Assembly (NCBI GenBank): GCA_020847895.1 | Contig: JADLBG010000642.1 | Location: 1-56,205 of the forward strand | Direction of reading: 5' to 3' | Length of the DNA stretch: 56,205 nt | Source: Bryobacterales bacterium | GTDB lineage: Bacteria; Acidobacteriota; Terriglobia; Bryobacterales; Bryobacteraceae | Shown here: positions 9,406 through 41,660 of the stretch, piece after piece | Layout of the letters: every line of letters begins with the position of its first letter | How positions within the stretch are numbered: the first letter of the stretch is position 1 | Notes under the pieces: model-generated | Seen by the model: the letters and a program-made list of their open reading frames with translations, nothing else | Databases searched by the model: none | Told to the model about the DNA's origin: nothing | Program-made: the position numbers and the translations under genes

Positions 9406-9930
9406 TCAGGCATCGGAGCATGGCGCGCCTCCGCCGCCGAGGTCTTCGAACCGCTTCATCCACTGGTGCCAGGCGCTAGCGACCGTCCAGATTACCTCCG
9501 CTTCGCGCAGCGGCCGTATGACCGCATCGAAGCCCCCCAAGGCCGACACCTCGCCCAGCAGGCTCTTGTCGCTCCCAACGACGACAAACATCGGCGCATC
9601 TGGAGTTGCGTTCACTACGCCGAGCGCCTCCTGCCAAACGGCGTCCGGCAGAGCCTCCTCGCAAACAACCACCGCGGCTTTTTGATTTCCGAGGCACGCA
9701 CGCGCTTCCTCGAGATTCGCCGCGCGCCGGACGGTCCAGCCGAACTTTGTGAACAGCCCAGCGAGATAGACGGCCAGTGTCGGATTTGCGCCGACGCTGA
9801 GGACATCCGTCACAGCAGGGGGGCGCTGCGGGCGCGCTTCGCGGTGGTCCGCGTCAACTTCCATTGGAGATGGCAGCCGCGGGCAGGCGGCCGCAACAGA
9901 CAAAGTCTCTCTCGACAGATCGCGGGTCAT
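9406..9930 (-). CDS. stand-alone receiver-like (pseudo-receiver) domain protein
   Basis: CheY-like alternation of beta/alpha segments. Canonical positions are substituted: VLSVGAN instead of the DD pair, VVVCEEALPD instead of the phospho-Asp, IRPL instead of KP. Confidence 0.5.
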   Translation of the reverse strand: MTRDLSRETLSVAAACPRLPSPMEVDADHREARPQRPPAVTDVLSVGANPTLAVYLAGLFTKFGWTVRRAANLEEARACLGNQKAAVVVCEEALPDAVWQEALGVVNATPDAPMFVVVGSDKSLLGEVSALGGFDAVIRPLREAEVIWTVASAWHQWMKRFEDLGGGGAPCSDA

Positions 9931-16784: not shown

Positions 16785-18110
16785 ATGTATCACTTTGCTT
16801 TTCGAGTTCCGGCTTGGACCTGGCCGCTCTTGATTCTGGCCGGCGCCGCTCAGGCGGCGGACCGCGTGCTGAGCCTGGAGGAGGCGGTCAAGATCGCGCT
16901 CGAGCAGAACCCGTTGACCCGGGTGGCCGGAGAAAACGCGGCCGGCGCGAAGGAGGCTGTGGGCGAGGCGCGGGCGTCCTATTACCCTGACCTGGCCCTC
17001 AGAGCGAGCTTCAACCGCTGGGAGCGGCATGCCTTCCTGCCGAGCGGGCTTGCACGACCCGGTATCCCCAGCACGATCGGACCCACCAACGACTGGTACA
17101 CCGGGGCCGCCACGCGCTACACGCTCTTCGATTTCGGCAGGCGGCGCGCGGAGGCGCGTGCCGCCCGGGCCCGGCTGGGCATAGCCCGGGAGGACGCCGG
17201 CCGTGTCCGGGAGGACATCGTCTTGTCGGTGCACCAGGCTTACTTCGGGCTTGCGGCATCACTCGAGATGGAAGGCGTCGCGCGCAAGGCGTTGACGCGG
17301 GCCGAGGACCACGTCAAAGTGGCCAGGTCGCGTAAGGAGGCGGGGGCCGTCCCGCAGGCGGATGTGGTGCGCGCGCAGGTCGAGGCGGCCGGCGCGCAAC
17401 TGGCCTTGGAGCACGCCCAGGGCATGGTGCGTGTCGCGGCGGGCAGCCTCAACACGGCGATGGGCGTTCCTGTCGAGGCGAGTGTCGAGGTCGATCGCAA
17501 TCCGCGGGAGATCATTCCGCCGGCAAGCATCGATTTGACCGAGGCTCTGGAGCGGGCCGTGAGCGCCCGGCCCGAACTGCGCGGCGCCCAGCAGCGGATC
17601 GAAGCCTCGCGCCGGGGTGTGGATGTGGTTCGAGGCGCTTACGGCCCCAAAGTGAAGGGCGAGGCGAGTTTGGGATGGCGCGATACGTCGTACTTTCCTC
17701 AGGACAAGGACTGGCTGGTGGGCGTCTCGGTCGAATTGCCCATCTTTACCGGCTTCTCTCGCAAGCACCGGTTGGCGCGAGCAAAATCGGAACTCTCCCG
17801 GGAAGAGGCCGATGCCCGGCGGTTGATGCAGGCAGTCCGGCAGGAGGTCTGGTCGGCCCACTCAAAGCTGCGCGAGACCTATGAGGCCACCGTTTCGACT
17901 GAAGCCCAGGTGCGGGACGCACGGGAGAGCCTCCGGTTGGCTTCCGAACGCTATCAGGCGGGCGCGGGCGTCATGACGGACCTCTTGGATTCCGAAGCGG
18001 CATTGGCCCACGCGGAGGCAGTCCGCGTGGCCGCGCTGTGGGATTACCAAGCTGCGCGTTCCACCTTCCAACGTTCGGTAGGCGAGTTGGCAACGAAATC
18101 TCAGCCGTGA
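16785..18110 (+). CDS. TolC-family outer membrane efflux protein
   Basis: Signal peptide. Duplicated alpha-helical/beta-barrel repeat pattern typical of OEP/TolC. Confidence 0.9.
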   Translation: MYHFAFRVPAWTWPLLILAGAAQAADRVLSLEEAVKIALEQNPLTRVAGENAAGAKEAVGEARASYYPDLALRASFNRWERHAFLPSGLARPGIPSTIGPTNDWYTGAATRYTLFDFGRRRAEARAARARLGIAREDAGRVREDIVLSVHQAYFGLAASLEMEGVARKALTRAEDHVKVARSRKEAGAVPQADVVRAQVEAAGAQLALEHAQGMVRVAAGSLNTAMGVPVEASVEVDRNPREIIPPASIDLTEALERAVSARPELRGAQQRIEASRRGVDVVRGAYGPKVKGEASLGWRDTSYFPQDKDWLVGVSVELPIFTGFSRKHRLARAKSELSREEADARRLMQAVRQEVWSAHSKLRETYEATVSTEAQVRDARESLRLASERYQAGAGVMTDLLDSEAALAHAEAVRVAALWDYQAARSTFQRSVGELATKSQP

Positions 18111-18152
18111 AAGGAGACCCGGCAACCGGCATCCGCGGCGCGCGGAATACGA

Positions 18153-19466
18153 GTGTCACGCGGTATGCCAAAATATCTTCAATCGATGGCGACGAAATAC
18201 CTATGGACGTTCAAAGCCCGGCTCCGCTCCCGTGCATTCGGATGGAGGGGTTCGCATCTCGCTTGCCGTCGTTTGAAAGAAGCTGTCACCGAGGTGAAGC
18301 AGGCCGGTAAGACGGATCCCGTTAGCGCCGGTGACGGTTTTGTGAGCCTGATGGAGAGAATCTGGCCGGCCTTTCAAGACGTCGATACCTCGTCCGGCGC
18401 ACTTGGCGGCGCGGTCTATTGGGCACAGGAGGAGTTGCTGCCCCTCGCAATCTCGGCCCCAGCGGACCGAAAAACGCGGGACAAGTGGTTGGACCGCCTC
18501 TGGCAGGCCATCGAGGATGACGGCGTCCATTACCTTTCCCTGGTCGGAGAACGGTGGGGCGAATTATGCGGTTCCCGCGAAGTTGCTTCTTGCTGGGCGG
18601 ACCGGTTCATTGGATTGGTTCGCGCCGACTGGTCTGATCCCCAGTCCCGCAACTACGTTCGCGGAACCACCGTCTGTCTGTCCAGTTTGCTGGCGGCGGG
18701 CTGCCATGAGGAACTACTCGAGTTGCTGGCGCTTCAGCGATATCCAAATTGGCACGATCGCAAGTTCGGTCTACAGGCGTTGCTGTCCGAAGGCCGCCCG
18801 GAGCAAGCGCTCCAGTATGCGGAAGCCTCGCGCGGCCTGAATCAACCGCGCGCCGCTATCGATGCCGCGTGTGAGAACATCCTGCTCGATCTCGGCCGGG
18901 TGGATGAGGCGTACGAGAAGTATGCGTTGACGGCAAATCGCGCATCCACGGGCCTCGCCACCTTCCGGGCGATCAGCAGGAGGTACCCCGGCCGCGATCC
19001 GAAGACGATTCTTGCGGATTTGGCCACATGGAGCGGCGAGCCCGGCCTCTGGTTTGCCGCGGCAAAAGCCGCCGGCTTCCTCGATCTCGCCCTGGAGTTT
19101 GCAAAGACGGGCCGCACCGATCCGCGCACGCTCACCCGCGCATCGCGTGACTTTCTCAAGAAGGATGCACGGTTCAGTCTCGAGGTGGGCAGGCTCGCAA
19201 TTGAGCGAATCCTCGAGGGGTACGGTTACGAACTGACCGGCATGGACCTCATCGAAGCCCATGAACATTTCATGGCTGCCGCGCAGGCTCTCGGCGTCTC
19301 TTCCCAGGCCCGCACCGAAGTGCTCGCCATGGCGGCGAAGCATCCCGGCGAGGCAAGCGATATTCTTATCCGCCGGCTCCCGGCGGATTCACCGGCGCAA
19401 GAAGCTCCGTGGAAAGCAGCAACTCTAACGAGGCAGGCGCCGGCAAAGCGAGGCGCCAGGCGCTGA
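18153..19466 (+). CDS. hypothetical alpha-helical repeat protein
   Basis: 437-aa ORF with coding-like composition. No motif recognised. Ends 10-37 nt before the ATPase gene, same strand. Confidence 0.55.
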   Translation: MSRGMPKYLQSMATKYLWTFKARLRSRAFGWRGSHLACRRLKEAVTEVKQAGKTDPVSAGDGFVSLMERIWPAFQDVDTSSGALGGAVYWAQEELLPLAISAPADRKTRDKWLDRLWQAIEDDGVHYLSLVGERWGELCGSREVASCWADRFIGLVRADWSDPQSRNYVRGTTVCLSSLLAAGCHEELLELLALQRYPNWHDRKFGLQALLSEGRPEQALQYAEASRGLNQPRAAIDAACENILLDLGRVDEAYEKYALTANRASTGLATFRAISRRYPGRDPKTILADLATWSGEPGLWFAAAKAAGFLDLALEFAKTGRTDPRTLTRASRDFLKKDARFSLEVGRLAIERILEGYGYELTGMDLIEAHEHFMAAAQALGVSSQARTEVLAMAAKHPGEASDILIRRLPADSPAQEAPWKAATLTRQAPAKRGARR

Positions 19467-19475
19467 GCGGCGGGG

Positions 19476-20882
19476 GTGGCCTCGATTGGCGGTGGAGGTG
19501 CAGTGCTCACCAAATTGTGCATACAGAACTTCAAGGCCTGGAGCGATACAAAAACCATCAGGCTTGCGCCGTTGACGGTCTTTTTCGGCGGCAACAGCGC
19601 CGGCAAGACGAGCCTGCTGCAATTCCTTCTCATGCTCCGCCAGACCGCGGAGTCCACGGATCGCCGCCGTGTTCTGCATCCCGGCGATCGCAATACACCG
19701 GTGGAGTTGGGGACTTATCGGGATTTGGTTTATGATCACGACCTGGGGCGCAAGATCCGGTTCGCGGTGGAATGGCTCTTGCCCGAACCGCTGGTGATCC
19801 GGAACCCCGTGACGCGAGCGAGCGTGGCTGGGAAGAGAATCCAGTTCAGCGCCGAAATCGCATCCGACCGTAAAGGCGGGCGGCAGTCCGTCACCTTCTT
19901 CCGTTACGACTTTGAAAACGATGGCCAAGGGATTCAGGTCACAATGAAAGCAGCCGGGAGCGGTCCCTCGGTCGAGTACGAGTTGTCCGCCGGCAATTAC
20001 AAACTCGCGCGAAATCGGGGACGCGCCTGGAAACTGCCGGAACCGGTCCGTTTCTACGGATTCCCGGACGAAGTGGCTGCCTACTATCGGAACGCCGTCT
20101 TCACCAGCGATTTGGCGCTGGCGTTGGAACGGCAATTGAAGCGAATTCAATACCTGGGGCCGCTCAGAACCTACCCGGAACGTTCCTACGTCTGGTCGGG
20201 GGAGGTTCCGGAACACGTCGGATGGCGTGGGGAAAGGGCGGTGGAAGCAATGCTGGCAGCGGCGTCCCGTAAGATCAGCGCCGGTTACCGGCAGCGCGCG
20301 AAACCCTTCCAGGCGGTGGTCGCACGATGGCTCCAGGATCTCGGGTTGCTCGATGGGTTCCAGGTCAAGGCAATCGCCGCACACCGCAAGGAATTCGAGG
20401 TGCTGGTTCGAACTCCCAAATCGAAGCAGACCGTAAATCTGACGGATGTCGGATTCGGAGTGTCCCAAATCCTGCCTGTTGTGGTGCAATGCTTCCACGC
20501 TGCCCCGGATACCACTATCCTGCTGGAACAACCGGAGATCCATTTGCATGCGAGCGTGCAGACCGCGCTTGCCGATTTGTTTATCGAGGCGGTGCGGTCC
20601 CGGGAGGATGGGGCGGACCGATCCATTCAGGTAATCGTCGAGAGCCATTCCGAACACTTTCTACGGAGATTGCAGCGGCGCGTTGCGGAGGGAGCCATCC
20701 AGCCAGACCAGGTTGCTCTGTATTTCTGTGAGTCCGGCGAGAACGGAGCGGAGCTTCACCCGCTCGAGGTGAATCTTTACGGCGAGATTCAGAACTGGCC
20801 GGACGGGTTCTTCGGCGACGAGTTGGGTGAACTGGCGGCGAGAATGGATGCTGCCGCCAGGCGCGAGGCGGTTCGGGAATGA
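19476..20882 (+). CDS. ABC/SMC-like AAA ATPase (AAA_15/21 type with DUF3696-like C-terminus)
   Basis: LTKLCIQNFKAW...FFGGNSAGKTSLLQ (Walker A), ILLEQPEIHLHA (Walker B), ESHSEHFLRRLQ, C-terminal NWPDGFFGDE. Alternative GTG start at 19503. Confidence 0.85.
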   Translation: MASIGGGGAVLTKLCIQNFKAWSDTKTIRLAPLTVFFGGNSAGKTSLLQFLLMLRQTAESTDRRRVLHPGDRNTPVELGTYRDLVYDHDLGRKIRFAVEWLLPEPLVIRNPVTRASVAGKRIQFSAEIASDRKGGRQSVTFFRYDFENDGQGIQVTMKAAGSGPSVEYELSAGNYKLARNRGRAWKLPEPVRFYGFPDEVAAYYRNAVFTSDLALALERQLKRIQYLGPLRTYPERSYVWSGEVPEHVGWRGERAVEAMLAAASRKISAGYRQRAKPFQAVVARWLQDLGLLDGFQVKAIAAHRKEFEVLVRTPKSKQTVNLTDVGFGVSQILPVVVQCFHAAPDTTILLEQPEIHLHASVQTALADLFIEAVRSREDGADRSIQVIVESHSEHFLRRLQRRVAEGAIQPDQVALYFCESGENGAELHPLEVNLYGEIQNWPDGFFGDELGELAARMDAAARREAVRE

Positions 20883-21421
20883 GTAGGAAGGCGCCGCGGC
20901 GCGCCTCGAGCCGAACCAATCTGCGCGTAGTGGACACGAACGTGGTGATCATCGCGAACCGCCGGGATGGCGGATCGAGAATATGCGCAAACGCGTGTTC
21001 CCAAGCTCTGCGAAAGATAGCGAAGACCGGGAGGCTCGCCCTGGACTCCGGCCTGGAGATTTTCGGGGAGTACAAAAAGTACTGCTCGTTTAGCGGACAA
21101 CCCGGCGTTGGAGATGCGTTCTTCAAGTGGGTGCATGATAACCTGTGGCGGACGGAAAAGGTCGTCCGCGTAAAAATCAATCGTCACGGGGAGCGGGGTT
21201 ATGTGGAGTTCCCTGATCTCACGGACCTCGCCGCCTTCGACCCGTCTGACCGCAAGTTTGTGGCGGTAGCCGCCAGGCATTCAGAACACCCTCCCATTCT
21301 CCAGGCTGCCGACAGCAAATGGTGGGGCTTCCGAGAGGCTCTTTTCGAAGCCGGAATTTTCGTCGAGTTCCTTTGCCCCGATGAAATCGAATCCATTTAC
21401 CTTGGAAAAAAGAAGGATTGA
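20879..21421 (+). CDS. PIN-like nuclease-domain protein
   Basis: VVDTNVVIIANR N-terminal acidic motif and FDPSDRKFVAVA distal acidic motif. The ATGA start/stop overlap with the ATPase gene indicates coupling. Confidence 0.6.
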   Translation: MSRKAPRRASSRTNLRVVDTNVVIIANRRDGGSRICANACSQALRKIAKTGRLALDSGLEIFGEYKKYCSFSGQPGVGDAFFKWVHDNLWRTEKVVRVKINRHGERGYVEFPDLTDLAAFDPSDRKFVAVAARHSEHPPILQAADSKWWGFREALFEAGIFVEFLCPDEIESIYLGKKKD

Positions 21422-22114
21422 ATGGCGAGGATCTTACACAAGTTTCCGCGCACACCGCACCTGGCATGGCTGGGTCCGGGTCTCCCGCGGGACGACAAGG
21501 TGCTCTCTCCGGAGGAACGCGCCCTGTTTCTGGAAGGCGGCCTGGTCATTGAGGAAAAGGCGGATGGCGCAAATATCGGGATTGGCTTTGATGACACGGC
21601 GGAGCCTGTTGTCTGGAACCGCGGCACCGTGCTGTGCGCGGGCGCTCACCCTCAGTTTCAGGCGTTCTGGCCATGGCTGGCGCAACGCCGGAACGCATTA
21701 TGGGAGGCGATGCAGGGGAATCTCATTCTGTTTGGAGAATGGTGTTTCGCCGTTCACTCCGTGCACTATGACCGCCTGCCTGATTACTTTCTCGCCATCG
21801 ACGTGTATGACAGGCAAGCCGGGAGGTTCTGGATTTCGCGCCGCAGAGATGACTGGACAGCACGGGTGGGGGTTGCTGCCGTGCCGGTGCTGGCAAGAGG
21901 CCGGTTCGGACTGGATGACCTCAAGCGCCTCCTCAACTCCACAGCCTCCCGGCTCGGCTCGGAGCCGATTGAGGGAATCTATCTGCGCCGCGAAGAAGAA
22001 CCCTGGTTGTTGAAGCGCGCCAAGTTGGTGCGGCCTGAATTCACCCAATCCATCGAGAAACATTGGACGGGCCGGCAGATGGAAAAGAATACGGTTCTCC
22101 CATCGCCATGCTGA
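21422..22114 (+). CDS. ATP-dependent RNA ligase-family nucleotidyltransferase
   Basis: KFPRTPHL lead. Motif I EEKADGAN (KxDGxN), motif III LILFGEW, IIIa FLAIDVYD, IV EGIYLR, V LKRAKLVRPEF. The ATG directly abuts the upstream TGA. Confidence 0.8.
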   Translation: MARILHKFPRTPHLAWLGPGLPRDDKVLSPEERALFLEGGLVIEEKADGANIGIGFDDTAEPVVWNRGTVLCAGAHPQFQAFWPWLAQRRNALWEAMQGNLILFGEWCFAVHSVHYDRLPDYFLAIDVYDRQAGRFWISRRRDDWTARVGVAAVPVLARGRFGLDDLKRLLNSTASRLGSEPIEGIYLRREEEPWLLKRAKLVRPEFTQSIEKHWTGRQMEKNTVLPSPC

Positions 22115-22130
22115 TCCGTGCTCAGCAGTC

Positions 22131-22813
22131 GTGGGCGCGGTTGCGTCACTGGGAGTCTGGACGGTGACCACACCGCCCCTGGAGCCGAACATTTGTGGGT
22201 ATTCGTTCTCTTTGGACGGCACCACCTTCCAGGGCCCAGCATATCCCATGTCAGAGCCGGGATTCAAGGCTGGCGGACAGAGTCTGGCTCGCGTACCGGG
22301 GCCAGTCAGTTGAGAGCCGGGTGGTGTGCCACGGGGTACGGTCACACGTAACTTCTACAAGTCGGCCGTGGCCGGCGATGATCGTGATTATTACGTCTAC
22401 ATGCCTCCCGGCTACGACCCACGCGACCGGACCACCTATCCCGTTCTCCATCTCCTTCACGGGTACGGCCAGGACTCGGCCTCATGGATCGCTGCCGGAA
22501 CGCCAGCGTGATCCTGGACAATCTCATCGCGCAGGGCGAGGCCGAGCCAATGATCATGGCCAACCCACTGGGCTACGGCGCTCCGGAGATGATAAAGGCA
22601 TTGACTACAGGCCGTGGGGGCGGTCGCGAAATGATGGAAAAGAACATCCAGTTCTTCGCCCAGGCGCTGTACGCCGGCCTGGACCGCTTCGCCTGGCTTG
22701 CTTCCTTTGCAGGAGCCTTCATGATGTGGTCCGATGCGTGGTGGTCGCTGCCATCCGGCTCCACTTCTTCTGAACGGTCGACGATCTTCACAGATCTCCA
22801 AGCTGATACATGA
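22131..22813 (+). pseudogene. decayed putative esterase (esterase D/enterochelin-esterase-like) gene
   Basis: Three ORF pieces: an N-terminal Ig-like piece, YYVYMPPGYDPRDRTTYPVLHLLHGYGQDSASW, then NLIAQGEAEPMIMANP. They are separated by an in-frame stop (22311-22313) and a frameshift (about 22484-22511). No Ser-nucleophile region follows. Confidence 0.55.
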
Positions 22814-22872
22814 CGATCTTCACCGGAACCGAAAATGCCGTCCAACATGCCGCCGACGGCGCATAGCGCCAC

Positions 22873-23446
22873 GTGGCCTGCATGGAGGGGAGTCAGTGGG
22901 CGCCCGAGCGAATGAACCTGTGGGTTCTCGACGAACGCCTCGTGTACCACCACTACCTCGCGTCGGATCTCGCCCTCAAAAAGATGACGGACGCCGTCAC
23001 CGTCGCGAGTACGGACCGGCCAGACCTCATCATCTTCCACGCTCCGAGCGCGTTCGTCGAATCAGCACCACCATTCAACAGCGTCACGATAATCGAATTC
23101 AAACGACCCGTCCCGGACGACTACAACGGCGACGACAACCCCATCAGCCAGGTGTACGCGTACATCGAGAGGATCAGAGACGGCAAAGCCAAGGACCGAA
23201 ACGGCCGACCCATCACCATCCCCGATCGGACGCCATTCTTCGCATACATCGTGTGCGACCTCACACCAACCTGTAAGCGACAGGCGAAAGCGGCAGGATT
23301 CCGCCAAACGGCAGACGCCGCCGGCTACTTCGGGTACAACGACAACTACGGGGTCTACGTCGACATCGTCCCGTTCGAAAAAACTCCTCGGAGACGACAA
23401 GAAAAGGAACGCGATCCTCTTCGACAAGCTCGGACTCACACCCTAA
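22873..23446 (+). pseudogene. N-terminally truncated, frameshifted remnant of a PD-(D/E)xK-type nuclease-domain protein
   Basis: RPDLIIF...VTIIEFKRP motif. The natural-looking C-terminus FEKLLGDDKKRNAILFDKLGLTP-stop needs one fewer A in the A6 run at 23378-23383. Confidence 0.5.
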
Positions 23447-23538
23447 GACCTAAGAAACCGCGAATGGAGTCCCACGGAGTCACCAGCCGCAAAGAAGCGG
23501 ACGCGATTGCGCCTAACGCGCACAAACTGAAGGGGTTA

Positions 23539-23585
<47 letters not shown>

Positions 23586-23682
23586 TAAACGCCGTTTGTA
23601 AACAAAAGACTTATGCGTCCAAGGCGTTGATTCTTGGCCACGTAACTCACTGATTCCTCGTGCTCGGTTTTCGCCGCCGTCC

Positions 23683-23706
23683 TTAATGGAGTAAATGGAG
23701 TAACGG
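23683..23706. repeat. tandem 9-mer motif TTA-ATGGAGTAA-ATGGAGTAA-CGG (candidate integrase arm-type site)
   Basis: Near-identical copy at 41545-41568 and a diverged copy at 41758-41780. Two of the three lie about 97 nt inside an att repeat. Confidence 0.45.
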
Positions 23707-23785
23707 CGGTTCCCCATTTTGCGCTTCCCATCCTGACGGCATAATCGCGCCGCTTCCCCAGCGGCAGCCGTGAGGAAACCCCAAC

Positions 23786-23968
23786 GTGAAACAGAAGAGG
23801 ATTCGTGCGCCCAAGCGCGGGACGCCGAGCGCCACCACGCAGAAGATTATCGATCACCTGCTGCGCCTGGCCGATCCTGACGGCCGGCATGACCCGGAGG
23901 TCGAGACCACCATGCTCGTCATGATGCGGGTTCAGCGGCGGACCATCCGCGAGGTGGTGAAGCCGTGA
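23786..23968 (+). CDS. small hypothetical protein upstream of the primase gene
   Basis: 60-aa ORF. Its stop overlaps the primase GTG start. No motif recognised. Confidence 0.3.
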   Translation: MKQKRIRAPKRGTPSATTQKIIDHLLRLADPDGRHDPEVETTMLVMMRVQRRTIREVVKP

Positions 23969-26346
23969 GTATGGTCGCGTCGTCTAACGGCGATCTTACC
24001 GCGTCGGAGATCTCCACTTACTACGCAGCCAGGCTGCCGCGGCTGAATCAGCGAGGGCGGGAGTGGCGTTGTTCCTGCCCTATCCACGACGGCAAGGACG
24101 AGAACTTCGCGGTGAACGCCGAGACGGGCCTGTGGTGCTGCCATAGCCAGTGCGGGCGCGGCGGTTCGGTCCATGACCTGGAGATGGCGCTGACCAACGC
24201 CGATTTCCGGACCGCCGCGCGGGAGGTCAGGCGCATTGTCGGCCGCCCCGATCTTCATCCGGGCGAATCGGAACCGCCGCTGAAGTGGGGACTGCTCGGG
24301 TGGCAGCACCAGTATCTGCGCGAGCGCATCGAGAAAGTCGAGTCCGAGAAGGGCTGGAAGCAGAACGCGATCTATCCGTACTTCGAGGCGGCCGGCAAGT
24401 TCTCGTACGTGAAGGTCCGGTTCATCGATAAGCAGAACGACAAGACGTTCCGGCAGTATGCCCTGTCGTCCAACGGCGGCTGGATCTCGCGGAATCAGGC
24501 AGGCAAGGTTCCGATCCTGTATCGGCTGGATAGGTTGGCTGCGGCAGAGGAAGTCTTCCTCGTGAACGGGGAGAAGGCGGCCGACCGCGGTGCCGCCGAT
24601 CTCGGCATCGTGACCACGTGCGCGCCCGACGGCGAGGGCAAGTGGTCCGGCGAATACACCAAGCCGCTAATCGGTAAGGTCGTCCGGGTCATCGTTGACC
24701 ACGATGAGAAAGGTGAGAAGCACGGCCAAGTCGTCAGCAAGGCAGTTGCGGCGCATGTGCGAGAGGTGAAGATCATCCGCCTGCCCGGTCTGCCGCCCAA
24801 GGGCGATCTGTGGGACTGGATTGAGGCCGGCGGCACGCGCGAGCAGTTGCACGCCATCGTGGAGCGGACCGCCGCGTATGAGGCCCCGCCCCCCACGCCC
24901 GCCGATCGAGAACCCGCCGTGTCGAAGCCCACGGTCGCGGCCGCTCCCGTCGTCGCGGACGACACGAGCAGCCTGCTCAAGCAGTTGCGGAACGATACCG
25001 GCAACGCCGAGCGCCTGATCCTGAAGTTCGGTAACCGCCTCCGCTTCTGCCCGGCGTTCCGCAAATGGCTCGTGTGGGATGATCGCCGCTGGGCCGTGGA
25101 CGACCGGGGTGCCGCCCGCCGCCTGGCAAAGCAGACGATGCTGGCGTATCTGGCGGAAGCCACGGACGTCGACGACAAGGACAACATGTCGTTCGCGTAC
25201 TCGTCCCTTGACGCCCGCCGAATTGCCAACATGCTCACGATGGCGGAATGCGAACTGGTGGTGACGCCCGACCAACTCGACACGCACCCGTTCCTGCTGA
25301 ATTTCCTGAACGGCACCCTCGACCTCCGCAATGGTGAACTGGCACCGCACAACCCGGACCAGTTGATTACCAAGCTGGTGCACTACAACTACAGCCCGGA
25401 GGTCGGGTGCCCGCTGTTCCTGAGCGTGATCGCCCGGATGATGGGCAACCACCCGGACGCGTCCGAACCGGACCTCGACCGTGCCGAACGCATGGTGGGT
25501 TATCTTCAGCGGGCACTCGGGTATTCGCTGACCGGCACCACGGAGGAGAAGGCCGTGTTCGTGCCGTTCGGGACCGGCAATAACGGCAAAACCACCCTGC
25601 TCTCGACATTCCTCCACCTGCTGGACGAGTACTCCGTGTTGCTCCAGGTGGACACGCTTATGGCACGGCAGGAGAGCAACAACACGCAGGCGGATTTGGC
25701 TGACCTGCGCGGCGCGAGGTTCGTGATGACGTCCGAGACGGAGGAGGGCCAGCGTCTCTCGCAGGGCAAACTGAAGCGCATCACGCAGGGCATGGGGAAG
25801 ATCAAGGCCACCCGGAAATACGAGAACCCGATCGAGTTCCTCGAGACCCACAAGTTGTGGATGGACACGAACTCCAAGCCGATGATCCGCGCAGCGGACG
25901 ACCAGGCCACCTTCAACCGCCTGCACCCGATCCCATTCACCGTCACCATCCCGCCCGAAGAAATCGACAAGAGCCTCCCGCGGAAACTGCTCGCGGAAGC
26001 CGAAGGTATCCTGGCTTGGGCCGTCGAGGGCGCGAAGGTTTGGCGGCAGTACGGCCTCGGGAAACCGCCGGAGGTGGTCGCTGCCAACGACGACTGGAGG
26101 TCCGAAAACGACCAACTCGGTCGTTTTATCGAGGAGTGCTGTGTGGTCGCGGACTCGTTCAGCGGGAGGGCCCGTCCGCTCTATGAATGCTACCGACAGT
26201 GGGCCGAGGGCGCGGGCGAGAACGCCATCACCGAGACGCTGTTCGGCAGGCGCTTGAAGGATAAGGGCTTCGCGAAAGAGCATCGCCGGTACGGCACGGT
26301 CTACAGCGGGATCGCCCTCCGCGCAGAGGAAAGCGGCGCGGCCTAA
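23965..26346 (+). CDS. phage/plasmid primase-helicase (CHC2 zinc finger + TOPRIM + D5/P4-family SF3 helicase)
   Basis: CSCPIHDGKDENF...CCHSQCGRGG zinc finger. TOPRIM-like VFLVNGEKAAD...IVDHDEKGEKH. Walker A FGTGNNGKTT within a P4-family C-terminal domain. Confidence 0.9.
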   Translation: MSMVASSNGDLTASEISTYYAARLPRLNQRGREWRCSCPIHDGKDENFAVNAETGLWCCHSQCGRGGSVHDLEMALTNADFRTAAREVRRIVGRPDLHPGESEPPLKWGLLGWQHQYLRERIEKVESEKGWKQNAIYPYFEAAGKFSYVKVRFIDKQNDKTFRQYALSSNGGWISRNQAGKVPILYRLDRLAAAEEVFLVNGEKAADRGAADLGIVTTCAPDGEGKWSGEYTKPLIGKVVRVIVDHDEKGEKHGQVVSKAVAAHVREVKIIRLPGLPPKGDLWDWIEAGGTREQLHAIVERTAAYEAPPPTPADREPAVSKPTVAAAPVVADDTSSLLKQLRNDTGNAERLILKFGNRLRFCPAFRKWLVWDDRRWAVDDRGAARRLAKQTMLAYLAEATDVDDKDNMSFAYSSLDARRIANMLTMAECELVVTPDQLDTHPFLLNFLNGTLDLRNGELAPHNPDQLITKLVHYNYSPEVGCPLFLSVIARMMGNHPDASEPDLDRAERMVGYLQRALGYSLTGTTEEKAVFVPFGTGNNGKTTLLSTFLHLLDEYSVLLQVDTLMARQESNNTQADLADLRGARFVMTSETEEGQRLSQGKLKRITQGMGKIKATRKYENPIEFLETHKLWMDTNSKPMIRAADDQATFNRLHPIPFTVTIPPEEIDKSLPRKLLAEAEGILAWAVEGAKVWRQYGLGKPPEVVAANDDWRSENDQLGRFIEECCVVADSFSGRARPLYECYRQWAEGAGENAITETLFGRRLKDKGFAKEHRRYGTVYSGIALRAEESGAA

Positions 26347-26352
26347 AATCCC

Positions 26353-26474
26353 GTGACGGGTTCAAAGCGTGACGGCTTGTGATGGCTTTTTTTCAAAACA
26401 ATCTTCACCCCGCGCGTATAAGGACCCTTTTTGAGAAAAACCCCTCACAAGCCGTCACATCGCAAACCCGTCAC
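26353..26474. repeat. nested inverted repeats around an AT-rich core; candidate replication origin of the element
   Basis: GTGACGGG (26353-60) and GTGACGGCTTGTGA (26369-82) are mirrored by TCACAAGCCGTCAC (26445-58) and CCCGTCAC (26467-74). The centre contains CTTTTTTTCAAAACAATCTTC. Confidence 0.4.
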
Positions 26475-26588
26475 AAGCCGGGACCGGTGGCGTCGGGACC
26501 CTTTTCGCGAGCCGCGCCGCGGGTAAAAGGATGGCACGCTCGGCGCAGCGGCAGCGCCGAAAAAGAGGTTGATGGGTTGATTCGGCGG

Positions 26589-26990
26589 TTACGGGGCGTG
26601 AGAGATCAGCGTCAAGCCCGTCACACCGAGGTAGTCGTTCCGGTTGTTGGTGAGCAGCGGCGCGTCGTGCAGCAGCGCGGTGGCGGCGATCCAGGCATCG
26701 GCGCTCTCGATCCTGCGGCCGCCAGCTTGCGACGACACCATCACCTCGGCCCACTTTCGGCAGAGATCCGGACTCGACGGCACCACCGTGAACCGTTGCA
26801 TGAATGTGCGCAGCATCTGAATCCGCTGGTCTCCCCACCGGTATTGAAGCACCCATCGCTCGATCTCTGCGACGGTCATAAACGATATGAGGATGATGCG
26901 GCCAGCCAGTTCCGCATCGTAGCGGGAGCCGAAAGGATGGTTCTTGAAGACGTAGGAAACGACGTCGGTATCGGCGACGACGTTGTTCAT
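26589..26990 (-). CDS. vapC: type II toxin VapC (PIN domain)
   Basis: VVADTDVVSYVFKN...ADAWIAATALLHDAPLLTNNRNDY. 4-nt overlap with the upstream antitoxin gene. Confidence 0.9.
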   Translation of the reverse strand: MNNVVADTDVVSYVFKNHPFGSRYDAELAGRIILISFMTVAEIERWVLQYRWGDQRIQMLRTFMQRFTVVPSSPDLCRKWAEVMVSSQAGGRRIESADAWIAATALLHDAPLLTNNRNDYLGVTGLTLISHAP

Positions 26991-27226
26991 GCGGACGGGT
27001 CAGTCCGCTTGTGGCCGCGCCATTCGCGGATCGTCGCCACGAACTCTTCCACGGATTCTTCTTCCGGCCAGAAATCGCCGTGGAGCACGGACACGTCGGT
27101 GATGGGCCCCGTGCCCTGTTCTGCCATCAGTTGTTCGATGGAAGGGTGTCCCGAGGCAGCATAAGGCACGGTTGCCGGGCGGTTGTCCGGCTCACCTTCC
27201 CGGTGCTGGCGGTTCACTTGGGCCAC
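26987..27226 (-). CDS. type II antitoxin partner of VapC
   Basis: 79 aa, overlaps vapC. C-terminal DFWPEEESVEEFVATIREWR resembles antitoxins of this class. Confidence 0.65.
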   Translation of the reverse strand: MAQVNRQHREGEPDNRPATVPYAASGHPSIEQLMAEQGTGPITDVSVLHGDFWPEEESVEEFVATIREWRGHKRTDPSA

Positions 27227-27269: not shown

Positions 27270-27746
27270 ATGACTGAAAACCCCATCCTGATGACCCAGG
27301 CGCAGTACGCGCGGCACCGAAACAAGAGCCCGCAGTACATCGGCAAGTTGTACAAGGCGGGCGTCCTGGTCATGCGCGGGCGCCTGGTGGACGTCACCGC
27401 GACCGACGCCGTGCTGGACGACAAGCCCGCCGAGAAGGCCGCGCCCGAGGGCCAGCAGCCGCCGACCAGTTACGCCCAGGCGAAGCTGGCCGACATGGTG
27501 TTCCGGGCGAAACTGCGCCGCCTGGAATTCGAGACCCGGCAGGGTAAATTGATCGAAACCGCCATCGTGAAGGAGCGGTGGGCGGCGATCCTGGTCGTGC
27601 TCAAGGAGCGCATCCTGGCCGTGCCCGACAAACTGGCGCCGGAAGTAACCGCGTTTACCGACGAGCGCCAGGTCCGCGATGCCCTGAAGCGCGAGATGCA
27701 CGCCCTCCTGAAGGCGGTCCACTCCGACATCCAATATGCGCGTTGA
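27270..27746 (+). CDS. putative terminase small subunit (Nu1-like HTH)
   Basis: N-terminal HTH-like MTQAQYARHRNKSPQYIGKLYKAGVL. Sits immediately before, and overlaps, the terminase large subunit gene. Confidence 0.55.
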   Translation: MTENPILMTQAQYARHRNKSPQYIGKLYKAGVLVMRGRLVDVTATDAVLDDKPAEKAAPEGQQPPTSYAQAKLADMVFRAKLRRLEFETRQGKLIETAIVKERWAAILVVLKERILAVPDKLAPEVTAFTDERQVRDALKREMHALLKAVHSDIQYAR

Positions 27747-29544
27747 AGAAATTCAGATGCTCGTGGCGGACGTGGTCCTGCCGCCGCCCGACATCACTGT
27801 CTCGGAGTGGGCAGACGAGAACCGCCGCCTGAGTTCCGAATCCGCGGCCGAACGCGGCGAGTGGCGCACCGACCGGGCACCGTACCAGCGGGCGATCATG
27901 GACGCCTTGAGTCCGAACCACCCGTGCGAGCAGGTGGTGCTGATGAGTGGAGCGCAGTTAGGCAAGACCAGCATCCTGGAGAACTTCGTCGGCTACATCA
28001 TCGACCTGGATCCCGGCCCGGTCTTGCTGGTGCAGCCGCGCGATGCCGATTGCGAGGCGTTCTCCAAGGACCGCCTGGCGCCCATGCTGCGGGATTGCGG
28101 CACCCTGCGCGGCAAGATCGCCGACGCCCGCAGCCGCGATTCGAACAACACGATCCTGCATAAGAAGTTCACCGGCGGCAGCATCACCATGTCCGCGGCA
28201 AGTTCACCGGCCGGACTCGCCATGCGAAGCATCCGGTACTGCCTGCTGGACGAGGTGGACCGCTATCCCGCGAGTGCCGGCAGCGAAGGTGATCCGGTGA
28301 ACCTCGCCATCACCCGGACGGCGAACTTCTGGAATCGCAAGATCGTCCTGTGCTCGACGCCCACCGTGAAGGGCGCATCCCGCATCGAGTCGGCCTGGCT
28401 GGAATCGAACCAGCAGATGTACTGGGTGCCGTGCCCGCTGTGCGGCATGCATCAAGTGCTTCGTTGGATCAACGTCGAGTGGCCGGAAGGCGATCCGGAC
28501 AAGGCGCAGTACCGCTGCGAGCATTGCGGCCAGATGATCGGCGACCACCAGAAGCCGTGGATGCTGAAGCACGGCGAGTGGCGAGCCGCGAGGCCTTCCA
28601 GCGGGATTGCCGGTTTCTGGATCAGCAGCCTGTATTCGCCTTGGAGAAACTTCCGATCAATCGCGCGGAAGTTCATCGCAGACCAGAAATCGCCCGAAAC
28701 TCTTCGCGAGTTCGTAAACACGGTGCTCGCGGAGGCGTGGGACGATGAGGCGCAGACTACCGTAGACATCTTGGAACTGCTGGCCCGTCGCGAGCATTAC
28801 CGCGCGCCCGTTCCGGCTGGCGCTGCCGTACTCAGCTGCGGTGTGGACGTCCAGGCCGACCGGCTCGAGATGGAACTGGTCGGCTGGGGCCGCGGCGAGG
28901 AATCGTGGAGCATCGAGTACCGTGTGTTTCCAGGCGACCCTACAGGTGCGGCGCTATGGGCTGAGTTGGACGAGTATCTCCAGCGCCAACGTCGTCACGA
29001 GAACGGCATCATCCTGCCGATCGCGTGCTGCATCGACAGCGGCTACGAATCCCAAGCCGTCTACGACTTCTGCCGCACTCGGTATCACCGGCGCGTGTTC
29101 GCCGTGAAAGGACAAGGCGGCCCCCATCCGGTGTGGCCCAAGAAGCCGACCGCGAAGAACATCCGCGGCGAGCGTCCCTGGATCGTCGGAACCGATTCGG
29201 CGAAGGCGACAATTATGGGCCGTCTCCGGAACGCCCAGCCTGGCACGCCCGGCTATTCGCATTTTCCTGCCGACCGCCAACAGCCATACTTCGAACAACT
29301 GCTCGGCGAGGCGCTCGCAACCACGTACAGCAAAGGCCAGCCGATCCGCGAGTGGCGTCCGAAGAAAGGTGTCCGGCACGAGGCGCTCGACGCGCGTGTC
29401 TACGCGTACGCAGCGCTACGGGCACTCGTTTCCATGGGGCTGCTCCTGGACGCGGAGGCCGACCGGATCGCGGCCCAGTGCGCCCCTGTTGGCCAACAAC
29501 GCCAAGCGACGCGAGTCAGCCGCAGCGCGTGGATGGCGGGCTAA
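27736..29544 (+). CDS. terminase large subunit, GpA (lambda) family
   Basis: VSEWADENRRLS...PYQRAIMDALSP, Walker A-like MSGAQLGKTS, zinc-ribbon CPLCG...CEHCG, C-terminal nuclease region. Confidence 0.9.
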   Translation: MRVEEIQMLVADVVLPPPDITVSEWADENRRLSSESAAERGEWRTDRAPYQRAIMDALSPNHPCEQVVLMSGAQLGKTSILENFVGYIIDLDPGPVLLVQPRDADCEAFSKDRLAPMLRDCGTLRGKIADARSRDSNNTILHKKFTGGSITMSAASSPAGLAMRSIRYCLLDEVDRYPASAGSEGDPVNLAITRTANFWNRKIVLCSTPTVKGASRIESAWLESNQQMYWVPCPLCGMHQVLRWINVEWPEGDPDKAQYRCEHCGQMIGDHQKPWMLKHGEWRAARPSSGIAGFWISSLYSPWRNFRSIARKFIADQKSPETLREFVNTVLAEAWDDEAQTTVDILELLARREHYRAPVPAGAAVLSCGVDVQADRLEMELVGWGRGEESWSIEYRVFPGDPTGAALWAELDEYLQRQRRHENGIILPIACCIDSGYESQAVYDFCRTRYHRRVFAVKGQGGPHPVWPKKPTAKNIRGERPWIVGTDSAKATIMGRLRNAQPGTPGYSHFPADRQQPYFEQLLGEALATTYSKGQPIREWRPKKGVRHEALDARVYAYAALRALVSMGLLLDAEADRIAAQCAPVGQQRQATRVSRSAWMAG

Positions 29545-29579: not shown

Positions 29580-30443
29580 TTACCTACCTGGCTCAATGCT
29601 TGTCCCGTTCAAACTGCGCAGGAACGCGATAAGAGCTTGCTTTTCGACAGCAGTAAGGCGCAGCGGACGAATCTCAGCATCGAGCCCTGGACTATGATTA
29701 CCGCCGCGATCGTAATACTCGATCACCTCTTCCAGTGTTGCGAGACTGCCGTCATGCATGTAGGGCACAGTGCGGGCGATCTCACGGAGCGTCGGCGTCT
29801 TGAAGTTACCCTGACCTGCCCCGGCGTCAGTGAACCGGCCGTCGCGCCAGGCGACGCCCGTGTTGTGTAAACGCTCATCGGTGAAATTGGGGCCGACATG
29901 GCACGCGCTGCAGTTGGCTTTGCCGCGGAACAGTTTAAGTCCGGCTTGCTGTTCGGCGGTGAGTGCGCCGCGGTCGCCGTTGATGTAGCGGTCGAAGGGC
30001 GAATCGCCGGCGAGGATGGATCGGACGAAGCTCGACAACGCGCGAGCGATTTGGTCGGGCGCTAGCCCTATGCGCGCCGCGGCTTCGGCGAGCAGCAGAT
30101 CCATTTCGTTGGGGTCTTCGATAGGTTTCAGTACTTGCTCTTCGAGCGATGCGGATCGCCCGTCCCAGAAGAAGAGTCGGCCATAGGCGCGATTGATCAG
30201 CGCGGGCGAATTCCGGCGCCCGATGCGACCGAAAACACCGATCGCGATTGCGCGACCGTCCGAGAAGGCGCGCTCGGGATGATGGCAGGAAGAGCAGGAG
30301 GTGGAGCCGTCGCGGGAAAGGCGGCTGTCGAAGAATAACCGCCGCCCTTGCTCGATCTTCTCGGCGGTGAGTGGGTTGTCCTCCGGGACCGGAAGGTAGA
30401 GGTCCAGTCCCAGAGGAATTGTGATAGCCAGTAGCAGCAGCAT
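29580..30443 (-). CDS. di-haem cytochrome c peroxidase (CCP/MauG family)
   Basis: CSSCHHPERAFSDG and CSACHVGPNFTDE haem motifs; PYMHDGSLATLEEVIEYY. TAATG coupling to the upstream gene. Confidence 0.9.
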   Translation of the reverse strand: MLLLLAITIPLGLDLYLPVPEDNPLTAEKIEQGRRLFFDSRLSRDGSTSCSSCHHPERAFSDGRAIAIGVFGRIGRRNSPALINRAYGRLFFWDGRSASLEEQVLKPIEDPNEMDLLLAEAAARIGLAPDQIARALSSFVRSILAGDSPFDRYINGDRGALTAEQQAGLKLFRGKANCSACHVGPNFTDERLHNTGVAWRDGRFTDAGAGQGNFKTPTLREIARTVPYMHDGSLATLEEVIEYYDRGGNHSPGLDAEIRPLRLTAVEKQALIAFLRSLNGTSIEPGR

Positions 30444-32551
30444 TACTTGCTCGCTTTGAGCGTAGGTAGAAAATTCTCCAGCACCCAGATTTCAGGGGGC
30501 TTCTGTGGCCCGCTTATCTCGAAGGCGATTTGCTGCCCATCGGGATGTAAGCGGATTTGCGGAATTCTCCTTCCGATTCCCAGATCTAGATCGAGCTTGC
30601 GTTGCTTGCCGTCGAGGGAAACCAACCATGTCTCGCTTTGCCTGCCCGCGGGCGAAGACTTCCTAAGCAGTACGGAGCGGCTATCCGGCGTCCAGCCGGC
30701 GACGCCGACCAGTTGGCCGGTGAAACCCGTGAGGTTGGTCGGCTCATCGACGCGCATTAGTTCTCTAGGCTCGCCACCTGACACCGGGATCATTACTGCT
30801 GCCGCGGACTTCGTTGACTCATCCGTAATCCCAGCAGCGATATTACGACCGTCCGGCGACAAACGGACGGAGCCGATGAACCGGTTTAGGAACAGTTCTT
30901 TTTCATGTCCGGACGCCAGATCCCGTTCGACCACCGCAGTTTCGCGGGCGCCAGGAGGGTGACTGCGATAGTACAGTTTCTTTCCGTCGGGTGAGGATGC
31001 TAAATGGTGCGGCCCATCGTTCCCCTCCCTTGGCACAATGACCGTAGTCTGTCCAGTTTGGGCATCGACCCGGAAGATTCCGTGCCGACCCTTGGCATCT
31101 AACCCACCGACCAACAAGGACCGGCCGTCCGGCGCCCATACAAGCCCTTGAAAGAAAACGAAACTTGGTGACGGCGTCAGTTCGCGAATCTGGCCCGTTT
31201 CGACCGAACGAATCCCGAGAACGAAGTACCGCGATCCAACAGTACCGCGAAGCGAGGCATATGCGAGGTACCTCCCGTCCGGTGACCAATCGGGAGATTC
31301 GTTGGCTCCAACAAAGGTCTGTATTGGCGCAACTGGTTTTGATAGAAACTTGCCGGCCGTGAAATCGAAGCTGGCGACACGGATCTCCGGACCGCCTCCG
31401 GAATTCCATATGGCGGAGTAGAGGGCGCCAGAAGTTGTCACACCCATGAATTCATGCCGCCCAATCTCAGGCTTCAGTAGTTCGGGCGTTCCCTGGGGTC
31501 TTCCGTCGAAAGCCAGGGCCCAAAGGCCCGTAGTACCACTGCGATCGCTGGCAAAAAGCAATCGCTTCCCATCCGGCGACCAGCCGACAAGTACATCCTG
31601 ACTCGGATGAACTACGGCTGGGATTTCCCCGCTACCGTCGACCGCCAGAAGGAATATGTCTCGCTGCTCTGTGGTATCACTGGCAGGAAGATCAAAGGCC
31701 AAGTATCTTCCATCCGACGAGAAGAAGACCCTGGTTGGTCCGCGCCAGTCTACAGATTTCAGGACTCGCAGTGAACCATCCTGAATGGCAATCAACCCGA
31801 TTTGTGTACTGCGGTCCCTTCGGTGTAACTGGACAGCCACCCATTTGCCATCGGGAGACCAATCGTCCGGAGAAATATAACTCACATCCTCGTTGTCGAA
31901 CAACCGCCGGAATTCCGGGATGCCCGCACCCTGCACTCCAACGATACGAAGTTCGTAGCGATTCTTACCGTTGAGCCATGCGTACGCCAGTTGTTTGCCA
32001 TCTCGGGAGAAAGCCGACCCCTCTGCAAATTCGTCCCTACTCGCCGTGTTGGTAAGGCGGCGATCGGCGCCGGTGGCAAGATCGTGCACGAACAGGTCGC
32101 CATTCTCATCCCAATTCACGTACGGGACCAAGCGGCCATCCCGTGAAACTGCGCCATATATACCTCGACGGGCAGGCGCTGTCCAAACCTGCCGCGCGGC
32201 CATGCCGTTAGGATGTCCCGCGGCCTCACTACGGCCCAACCGCACGCGAGCCGTCGCCACTGCTTCCTTTTGGTCTGCGTATTCCCGGACCACTCGTTCA
32301 TAGACCTTACGCGACTCGGCGTTGCCCAACTTCTGATAGCACTCCGCCATGTGCACCAGCGCGGTCGCCGCCACACTACGGTCCGTCTTCGCATACTTTG
32401 CGGCAATCTCGCCGTACTGTTTGATCGCCGTCTTCAAGTCGCCGTTCACCAGTTCGGCGTTCATCGCCGCCTTAAGCTGGCGCTCGGCTTCATTGCTCTG
32501 TGCCCCGGCCGCGAGAATCGCGGCCAATGTTCCAATCAGGATTGACTTCAT
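30443..32551 (-). CDS. secreted TPR + PD40/TolB-like beta-propeller repeat protein
   Basis: Signal peptide, N-terminal TPR-like helices, then at least 9 SPDG/SRDG-type PD40 repeats (SPDGKWVA, SSDGRYLAF, SPDGKRLLF and others). Confidence 0.85.
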   Translation of the reverse strand: MKSILIGTLAAILAAGAQSNEAERQLKAAMNAELVNGDLKTAIKQYGEIAAKYAKTDRSVAATALVHMAECYQKLGNAESRKVYERVVREYADQKEAVATARVRLGRSEAAGHPNGMAARQVWTAPARRGIYGAVSRDGRLVPYVNWDENGDLFVHDLATGADRRLTNTASRDEFAEGSAFSRDGKQLAYAWLNGKNRYELRIVGVQGAGIPEFRRLFDNEDVSYISPDDWSPDGKWVAVQLHRRDRSTQIGLIAIQDGSLRVLKSVDWRGPTRVFFSSDGRYLAFDLPASDTTEQRDIFLLAVDGSGEIPAVVHPSQDVLVGWSPDGKRLLFASDRSGTTGLWALAFDGRPQGTPELLKPEIGRHEFMGVTTSGALYSAIWNSGGGPEIRVASFDFTAGKFLSKPVAPIQTFVGANESPDWSPDGRYLAYASLRGTVGSRYFVLGIRSVETGQIRELTPSPSFVFFQGLVWAPDGRSLLVGGLDAKGRHGIFRVDAQTGQTTVIVPREGNDGPHHLASSPDGKKLYYRSHPPGARETAVVERDLASGHEKELFLNRFIGSVRLSPDGRNIAAGITDESTKSAAAVMIPVSGGEPRELMRVDEPTNLTGFTGQLVGVAGWTPDSRSVLLRKSSPAGRQSETWLVSLDGKQRKLDLDLGIGRRIPQIRLHPDGQQIAFEISGPQKPPEIWVLENFLPTLKASK

Positions 32552-41613: not shown

Positions 41614-41660
<47 letters not shown>

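Follow-up and report, generated by a model that had tools for sequence, protein, structure and literature searches.

A predicted RNA ligase as the third gene of a HEC-03-type ATPase-PIN cassette in a Bryobacterales bacterium

Introduction

What is the gene of a small RNA ligase doing directly behind the genes of an ATPase and a PIN nuclease? The question is raised by positions 18153-22114 of a 56,205-nucleotide (nt) stretch of DNA, hereafter the window, from a Bryobacterales bacterium (Acidobacteriota; GenBank assembly GCA_020847895.1, contig JADLBG010000642.1). An initial annotation, made from the letters of the sequence, had described a coupled ATPase, PIN-like and RNA ligase operon here and had suggested a reversible RNA-cleavage response against phages. 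The cassette is very probably a HEC-03-type defence cassette with a dedicated ligase, and it was filed as a three-gene variant of HEC-03 because a co-conserved ligase gene lies 3' of the pair.

Results

Layout of the cassette

Four open reading frames (ORFs) lie on the same strand at 18153-22114, all as first described, and the motifs quoted for them are present: FFGGNSAGKT and LLEQPEIHLH in the ATPase, VVDTNVVI and FDPSDRKFVAVA in the PIN protein, and KADGAN, FGEW, EGIYLR and LKRAKLV in the ligase. Three of the ORFs make up the cassette (aa, amino acids; ABC, ATP-binding cassette):

19476..20882, forward strand: ABC-type ATPase with a C-terminal DUF3696 helix, 468 aa, presumed sensor and scaffold
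19494..19498, forward strand: GGAGG motif resembling a Shine-Dalgarno sequence, 4 nt 5' of the in-frame GTG at 19503 (read in the sequence)
20879..20882, forward strand: ATGA in which the ATPase stop and the PIN start overlap, a translational coupling (read in the sequence)
20879..21421, forward strand: predicted divergent PIN-domain nuclease, 180 aa, presumed effector
21419..21424, forward strand: TGA-ATG in which the PIN stop directly abuts the ligase start (read in the sequence)
21422..22114, forward strand: predicted minimal ATP-dependent RNA ligase, 230 aa, nucleotidyltransferase domain only, conserved third gene

The overlap and the abutment, both reported in the initial annotation, are real. 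Because the GGAGG motif stands at 19494-19498 and homologues begin with an equivalent MLTxLxLxNFK, the true start of the ATPase is probably GTG 19503, which leaves a gap of 36 nt to the 437-aa ORF upstream.

Relation of the ATPase and PIN genes to HEC-03

In PADLOC the ATPase matched model PDLC04148 of HEC-03 with an E-value of 1.3e-130 (434 bits, residues 11-464 of 468) and the PIN protein matched PDLC04147 of the same system (E 9e-34, residues 17-169). The two genes are adjacent, on one strand and overlap by 4 nt, as HEC-03 requires. No PADLOC model matched the ligase. HEC-03, for Hma-embedded candidate 03, was described as an ABC ATPase with a VapC-like PIN protein that reduces plaquing in E. 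coli, needs both genes to do so and is toxic as a construct when isopropyl β-D-1-thiogalactopyranoside is added (Payne et al., bioRxiv 10.1101/2024.01.29.577857). The system tested there came from Pseudomonas cichorii and is a two-gene pair without ligase; the PIN protein of the window is 38% identical to its PIN protein. Both share a homologous DUF3696-tailed ABC ATPase, a small PIN protein, the gene order and the overlap, whereas the P. cichorii system and the PADLOC definition comprise two genes and the ligase is here a third, co-evolving one.

With the HEC-03 models matching and HEC-03 defending E. coli, the earlier suggestion of an ATPase-plus-nuclease antiphage module stands, but whereas the initial annotation did not recognise the trio as a named system, the pair is a named candidate, HEC-03. 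Phage protection by the trio is presumed by analogy with the P. cichorii pair, the only one for which it is shown, and in a preprint of September 2026 the mechanism of HEC-03 was still undescribed. The names of the two components are exchanged between sources: in the PADLOC database HEC-03A is the PIN protein and HEC-03B the ATPase, while the text of the preprint uses HEC-03A for the ATPase and HEC-03B for the PIN protein.

Conservation and co-inheritance of the three genes

A genome scan with an alignment of the PIN protein gave 534 relatives, of which the best-scoring 80 loci were kept; in the same scan the window was about 99% identical to a Bryobacterales metagenome-assembled genome. Among these 80 loci the ATPase gene lies directly 5' of the PIN gene in essentially all, and a ligase gene directly 3' of it in 66. 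Of the 14 loci that lack a ligase, three break off too early to judge. The ligases of the trio loci are 38-64% identical to that of the window, rising to 89-95% in two close relatives, L001 and L002. Trios occur in Acidobacteriota, Chlorobi, Gamma-, Zeta- and Deltaproteobacteria, Planctomycetota, Myxococcota, Nitrospirales, Chloroflexota, Firmicutes, Spirochaetia and one candidate-phylum bacterium, and two myxobacterial homologues of the ligase belong to the same trio. Both junctions are 4-nt overlaps in most loci; the PIN-ligase junction of the window is an abutment instead.

The reverse approach, a metagenome scan with an alignment of the ligase, gave more than 556 ligase loci. Of the loci examined, 66 extend far enough upstream, and in 63 of these a PIN-family ORF ends at most 150 nt before the ligase start. 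Viewed from either gene, the trio is co-conserved in other genomes, as its first reading had supposed. With hundreds to thousands of homologues for each protein and a gene order that recurs across many phyla, the cassette is far beyond chance.

A second, deeply divergent clade of trios accounts for 15 of these 63 metagenomic loci (among them L090, L098, L114, L121, L127, L135, L141-L143, L149, L155, L158 and L163). Its ATPases are 31-41% identical to that of the window, and its PIN proteins are undetectable by tblastn and were linked by hhalign (probability 96%, E 3.5e-9). In this clade the ligase is better conserved than its two partners, with 47-56% identity. Some PIN proteins of this clade fall below the HEC-03 PIN model of PADLOC, with no match for L141 and an E-value of 7e-8 for L127, and the ligase could serve as a marker for finding divergent HEC-03-like systems.

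The three proteins have diverged in step. Pairwise identities, compared across 54 loci, correlate among ligase, PIN protein and ATPase with r = 0.83-0.85 (Mantel 0/999), and the mean divergences of the three are alike (0.60, 0.63 and 0.66, respectively). Because relatives of the ligase at about 32% identity no longer adjoin ATPase-PIN genes, the trio ligases form a dedicated clade. Three close ligase homologues in the metagenomes (L093, L106 and L119) have no ATPase or PIN gene upstream; they are preceded by a 396-aa and a 179-aa ORF, by an 862-aa ORF, and by a 147-aa protein with a retropepsin-like DTGA motif, respectively, which may be alternative partners.

Searches of the accessible literature revealed no account of the trio, a scope that leaves aside two surveys by the Aravind group, on RNA repair (NAR 2016) and on ABC ATPases (NAR 2020), the likeliest sources.

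The predicted RNA ligase

The third protein matches the Pfam family RNA_ligase (PF09414) with an E-value of 4e-26 and 92.6 bits, against a cut-off of 27. Conserved to at least 95% among 61 orthologues are K46, D48, G49 and N51 of motif I, R67, E106 of motif III, F123 and D127 of motif IIIa, E184, G185 and R189 of motif IV, and R199 and K201 of motif V. A search of the Protein Data Bank (PDB) by sequence yielded just weak matches. An AlphaFold2 (AF2) model, with a predicted local distance difference test (pLDDT) score of 91.4, was compared by Foldseek, and the best matches were Rnl3 (Pab1020), Rnl5 (Naegleria) and Rnl2 (T4), followed by Trl1 and Rnl1, with DNA ligases last. Ranks 1-34 of the PDB matches are RNA or tRNA ligases (E 1e-8 to 3e-5), DNA ligases appearing from rank 35, and in a viral structure library the matches were again RNA ligases. 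The protein groups in both libraries with RNA ligases and not with DNA ligases or capping enzymes, the grouping that would have spoken for a housekeeping function. The closest viral structural match, BFVD entry A0A3G4ZM97 from Terrestrivirus sp. (859 aa; template modelling (TM) score 0.88, 33% identity over 229 columns), covers one domain of a large uncharacterised giant-virus protein.

With Rnl3 (Pab1020, MthRnl), Rnl5 (NgrRnl, and DraRnl of Deinococcus) and Rnl2 of T4 the ligase shares the fold and motifs I, Ia, III, IIIa, IV and V, at an identity of 15-24% in structural alignments. It differs in being a bare nucleotidyltransferase domain: the C-domain of Rnl2, the N-terminal domain of Rnl5, and the N-terminal, dimerisation and C-terminal domains of Rnl3 are absent. 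At 230 aa it meets targets of 317-389 aa, for which the target-normalised TM-scores are 0.3-0.45. Motifs and fold matches together predict a catalytically intact ligase of the RNA type.

The bare domain invites the thought that the protein does not ligate at all and would act as an adenylyltransferase marking 5'-phosphate RNA ends, as a sensor of ATP or RNA ends, or as a structural regulatory subunit. The isolated N-terminal domain of T4 Rnl2 is a parallel: it self-adenylylates, but transfers to the RNA 5' end efficiently only together with the C-terminal domain; and if the PIN protein leaves 5'-OH ends, the ligase would have to do something other than resealing. Motifs IV and V and the residues of the later steps are, however, as conserved as the motif I lysine, and we know of no precedent for a non-ligating role in the nucleotidyltransferase superfamily. 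Such a role is considered very improbable.

It is also conceivable that the ligase works on a substrate other than that of the PIN protein, namely host RNAs or RNA-DNA or DNA nicks made by phage nucleases or by BREX-like neighbours; in a variant, the PIN protein would act on DNA flaps and the ligase would seal the resulting nicks. PIN-like domains include DNA flap nucleases, the PIN target of HEC-03 is undescribed, and the trio is frequently embedded in BREX, a DNA-directed system. Yet the ligase associates specifically with the PIN gene, in the 63 of 66 loci given above, whatever the wider neighbourhood, its structural neighbours are RNA ligases with DNA ligases ranked last, and it forms the dedicated clade described above. 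A separate substrate is accordingly a poor candidate, to which only a small probability is given.

Loci without a ligase

In a neighbour-joining tree of the ATPases, which carries no support values, the ligase occurs in both deep clades and the loci without it are scattered in at least five places: P. cichorii with L059 and L080; L005-L009, close acidobacterial relatives of the clade of the window; L060; L071; and L044 with L039. No replacement third gene was found in the ligase-less loci, the downstream genes being unrelated (DUF2071, Schlafen/AlbA_2, TOTE, aminotransferases). An ORF abutting the pair in L008 was considered as a degraded ligase and rejected; it is not a ligase remnant. PIN proteins with and without a ligase partner are alike in their active-site residues and in the length of the C-terminal helix and tail. 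Since the ligase-less loci are scattered, their downstream genes unrelated and the PIN sites unchanged, the simplest reading of these sequences suggests that the ligase is ancestral but dispensable for the core function.

Directly 3' of the ligase-less pair, L071 encodes an AEP primase-helicase of a TOTE system (7467-9887; PF22548, 1.5e-102) and L017 a Schlafen/AlbA_2 protein (1035-2879). These conflict genes fit a defence-island setting.

The losses bear on a reading in which the ligase belongs to the weapon. The PIN protein would cut an RNA twice and the ligase would join the outer ends, leaving a dead-end RNA, shortened or circular, such as a tRNA minus part of its anticodon arm, that is beyond phage repair; ligation would then make the damage permanent. 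The tight 4-nt coupling of PIN and ligase genes suggests stoichiometric co-production, a ligase without RNA-binding accessory domain may depend on the PIN/ATPase complex, and in vitro T4 ligases made an aberrant, shorter tRNA from doubly cut products of the OLD nuclease and closed the excised piece into a circle. But repeated losses of the ligase have left ATPase and PIN protein intact with unchanged active sites, and the tested two-gene HEC-03 defends without it; an essential effector subunit should not be dispensable. This dispensability is the strongest argument against an essential effector role, and the cut-and-rejoin scheme is judged unlikely.

The ATPase and the PIN protein

The ATPase matches the Pfam families AAA_15 (2.5e-24), AAA_21 (3.3e-19) and DUF3696 (2.6e-13). 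In PADLOC HEC-03 is its nearest model and NsnB of the Menshen system the next (4.9e-62). Among 73 orthologues G43 and K44 and the Walker B residues E351, Q352, P353 and E354 are conserved to at least 95%. The latter (window 20526-20537, residues 351-354) read EQPE instead of DEPE, as in the P. cichorii protein, with glutamine at the position of the catalytic glutamate of ABC ATPases, which suggests that the protein may be an ATP-binding switch. NsnB has a comparably degenerate Walker B, 'EN', and for Menshen a clamp of two DUF3696 helices around the PIN-fold domain of NsnC has been predicted.

The cassette thus resembles Menshen in an NsnB-type ABC ATPase with DUF3696 tail, a PIN-fold partner and a degenerate Walker B (EN in NsnB, EQ here). 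It differs in that NsnA (ParB-DUF262) is absent, the 437-aa protein and the downstream ORF having no PADLOC or Pfam match, and in the nuclease: NsnC combines an inactive PIN domain with a separate C-terminal nuclease, whereas the PIN protein of the window keeps the acidic set D-E-D-D and ends after the PIN fold. PARIS (AriA/AriB) and the OLD protein of P2 likewise couple an ABC ATPase sensor to a metal-dependent, tRNA-cutting nuclease, but their effector is a Toprim and not a PIN protein, neither has an associated ligase, and the double cut of OLD serves precisely to defeat repair by ligases. Neither a Toprim nor a DUF4435 protein (AriB) occurs in the cassette; the ATPase showed just partial AriA-like matches in Pfam and PADLOC.

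For the PIN protein no Pfam match was obtained, and a profile search of the PDB sequences was empty. Its AF2 model has a pLDDT of 93.6 and finds VapC (7vwo) as best Foldseek match, a weak one (E 0.014, probability 0.99, TM 0.48-0.57); further matches to PRORP/HARP, SMG6 and MARF1 NYN are also weak, with E-values of 0.014 and above. These PIN and NYN matches agree with the structural assignment in the HEC-03 preprint (bioRxiv 10.1101/2024.01.29.577857). D19, E64, D121/D124 and D145 are conserved to at least 95% among 80 orthologues. In the model strand 1 ends with D19, the helix that follows strand 2 carries E64, a helix begins at D121/D124, and D145 comes behind strand 140-142; these would be the canonical points of the fold. 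The acidic tetrad, on which the first description of a PIN-like protein depended, is therefore kept. C36, C40, H134 and C166 are equally conserved in the 80 sequences, with or without a ligase, and could be a metal (zinc) site. A VapC is the best structural match, but the arrangement is not that of VapBC: there is no VapB-like antitoxin gene, and the gene upstream encodes an ABC ATPase, the presumed controller.

Genomic context of the trio

At least 19 of the 80 loci carry the complete trio embedded in a BREX operon, all on one strand, in the order PglX, [ATPase-PIN-ligase], (BrxH), PglZ, BrxA. This is the same 'guilt by embedding' logic that gave HEC-03, here with the ligase included. Clustering of the flanking ORFs revealed no further conserved genes beyond BREX components in a subset of loci. 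The trio is also carried on Aeromonas plasmids, in the conjugative one examined between AbiE, Hok/Gef and GASH genes; these plasmids and the chromosomes of Corallococcus (C. coralloides, for instance) and Chondromyces are among the culturable carriers. A trio on a plasmid of Aeromonas veronii (NZ_AP022291.1) comprises the proteins WP_182936410, WP_182936411 and WP_182936412. An origin from phages was considered and rejected, as viral contigs contain no relatives of the PIN protein and phage ligases are at most 30% identical. Window, L001 and L002 share a nucleotide block that begins with the 437-aa gene and ends with the ligase, and their flanks differ.

Mobility and toxicity together raise the question whether the cassette is a toxin-antidote module for addiction or stress dormancy, in which the PIN protein would be the toxin and ATPase and ligase two antidote layers stabilising plasmids and islands. 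The cassette does occur on conjugative and mobilisable plasmids beside Hok/Gef and AbiE, the shared block does sit in differing flanks, and HEC-03 is toxic on induction. Plaque assays, however, show phage protection by the homologous pair, the cassette is embedded in chromosomal BREX operons, and viral contigs hold no PIN relatives; a role in addiction is regarded as distinctly improbable.

Neighbouring genes in the window

The initial annotation had further supposed that the helical protein directly upstream may belong to the unit:

18153..19466, forward strand: 437-aa protein, adjacent, no family match in PADLOC, Pfam or NCBIfam, not a system component

This was not borne out. The gene accompanies the cassette in L001 and L002 only and is absent from 78 of the 80 loci, and as a fourth component it was rejected, its homologues lying elsewhere among unrelated neighbours. 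It has 3279 homologues, the best 120 of which are 69-96% identical, and is a conserved acidobacterial chromosomal gene that the cassette adjoins in this lineage.

The base composition of the cassette is no different from that of the neighbouring sequence. A scan for promoters and terminators gave no signal above shuffled controls, and Rfam had no significant match in 17900-24100.

Downstream, 22118-23601 holds short ORFs in different frames that resemble pieces of an esterase-type gene (e.g. YYVYMPPGYDPRDRTTYPVLHLLHGYGQDSASW) and are probably a frameshifted pseudogene. A 242-aa ORF without family match (22873-23601) runs into the first of two direct tRNA 3'-end fragments on the minus strand (23538-23638 and 41613-41713; ...GCGGGTTCGAGTCCCGT[T/C]TCCCGCTCCA), which are 101 nt long and 77% identical; the first lies about 1.4 kb beyond the ligase. 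The roughly 18 kb between them encode a D5-type primase (23965-26346), a terminase (27736-29544), a portal protein (36237-37649), a capsid/protease protein (37756-39501) and an integrase (40292-41548), and this stretch looks like a prophage-like element integrated at a tRNA site. ARAGORN detected no intact tRNA in the window. Host-like genes for a cytochrome c peroxidase, a PD40 protein and a two-component system stand in the middle of the element (29580-35083), where they are odd.

Directly after the ligase, 4886-5191 of L002 match 26830-27132 of the window at 69%. This is the end of ORF 26379-27164, which in the window lies 4.7 kb farther, inside the prophage-like element; 22118-26830 has thus either been inserted in the window or been lost from L002.

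Beyond the second tRNA fragment, 41900-56205 has a lower GC content (0.52-0.59 against about 0.62). It encodes a 1123-aa protein in which an IrrE-like peptidase, a UvrD helicase and a PD-(D/E)xK nuclease are fused (44795-48166), together with a ParA-like ATPase (50292-51206) and a PIN_8/PIN_12 protein of 441 aa (53274-54599). The stretch could represent another integrated element or a defence island.

Discussion

The mechanism proposed here builds on the family membership of the pair, on the conservation, co-inheritance and coupling of the ligase, on the intact motifs of all three proteins and on the defence-type context. The ABC ATPase, a relative of Menshen NsnB, would hold the small PIN nuclease, presumably through its DUF3696 tail, and sense a cue of infection. 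The activated PIN protein would cut a conserved cellular RNA, most likely tRNA or rRNA, so that translation stops, and the co-translated minimal RNA ligase would rejoin the breaks that the PIN protein makes. As a damage-reversing safety device it would erase the low-level cleavage by a leaky nuclease, avoiding autoimmunity, and/or allow recovery once the trigger is gone. This three-gene form of HEC-03, with sensing by the ATPase, RNA cutting by the PIN protein and resealing by the ligase, is put forward with moderate confidence, and the repair role of the ligase, taken for itself, as plausible but somewhat more tentative.

A sequence of damage and then repair, already suggested in the initial annotation, fits the repeated loss of the ligase beside an intact pair and the function of HEC-03 without ligase. 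The chemistry of related nucleases is compatible with it: OLD and AriB are ABC-ATPase-linked, metal-dependent tRNases whose products, with 5'-phosphate and 3'-OH ends, are directly joinable by RNA ligases, and for a single OLD nick no end healing was needed: T4 Rnl1 or Rnl2 'seamlessly repaired' it.

Several points weigh against resealing. The Woychik laboratory reports 5'-OH ends on the products of VapC-family nucleases, and if the PIN protein leaves such ends the ligase alone cannot rejoin them, as the cassette has no kinase, phosphatase or cyclase gene. A constitutively co-expressed antidote could blunt the defence. Because the ligase has no RNA-binding accessory domain of the Rnl2, Rnl3 or Rnl5 kind, its substrate (RNA or DNA, nick or free ends) is unreadable from sequence. 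The 80 loci are the best of 534, so their ligase frequency is not transferable to the whole family, and the tree in which the losses are seen is a neighbour-joining one, as noted.

RNA ligases that reverse nuclease damage to the translation apparatus have precedents in the repair of PrrC-cleaved tRNA-Lys by Pnkp/Rnl1 of T4 and in the RtcAB and Pnkp/Hen1 operons. The ligase of T4 is on the attacker's side and counters a nuclease of the host, whereas here one host operon encodes both; and no end-healing kinase, phosphatase or cyclase accompanies them. A conceptual likeness exists with DarG of DarTG, a damage-reversing antitoxin: the proposed ligase would also undo the lesion rather than bind the toxin, with the difference that it would act on RNA breaks.

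The new part is the ligase. Judged from their sequences, most sampled members of the family carry, and the ancestral form probably carried, a dedicated RNA ligase that is predicted to be catalytically intact. The HEC-03 models of PADLOC cover two genes only and miss some PIN proteins of the divergent clade that are still marked by the ligase. For HEC-03 the ligase provides a concrete, testable model, with an RNA target, ligatable ends and a built-in reversal.

RNA ligases are known in the defence field as counter-defence tools of phages. The cassette may, tentatively, be a widespread bacterial immune module with its own RNA-repair enzyme, the host counterpart of the T4 repair system, in which the translation arrest caused by the PIN protein would be reversible and self-healing and not suicide. 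If this is true, the ligase would filter out noise that might lead to autoimmunity and act as a reset switch once an infection has failed, and a host nuclease system with its own ligase would alter views of abortive and reversible immunity and of the control of autoimmunity.

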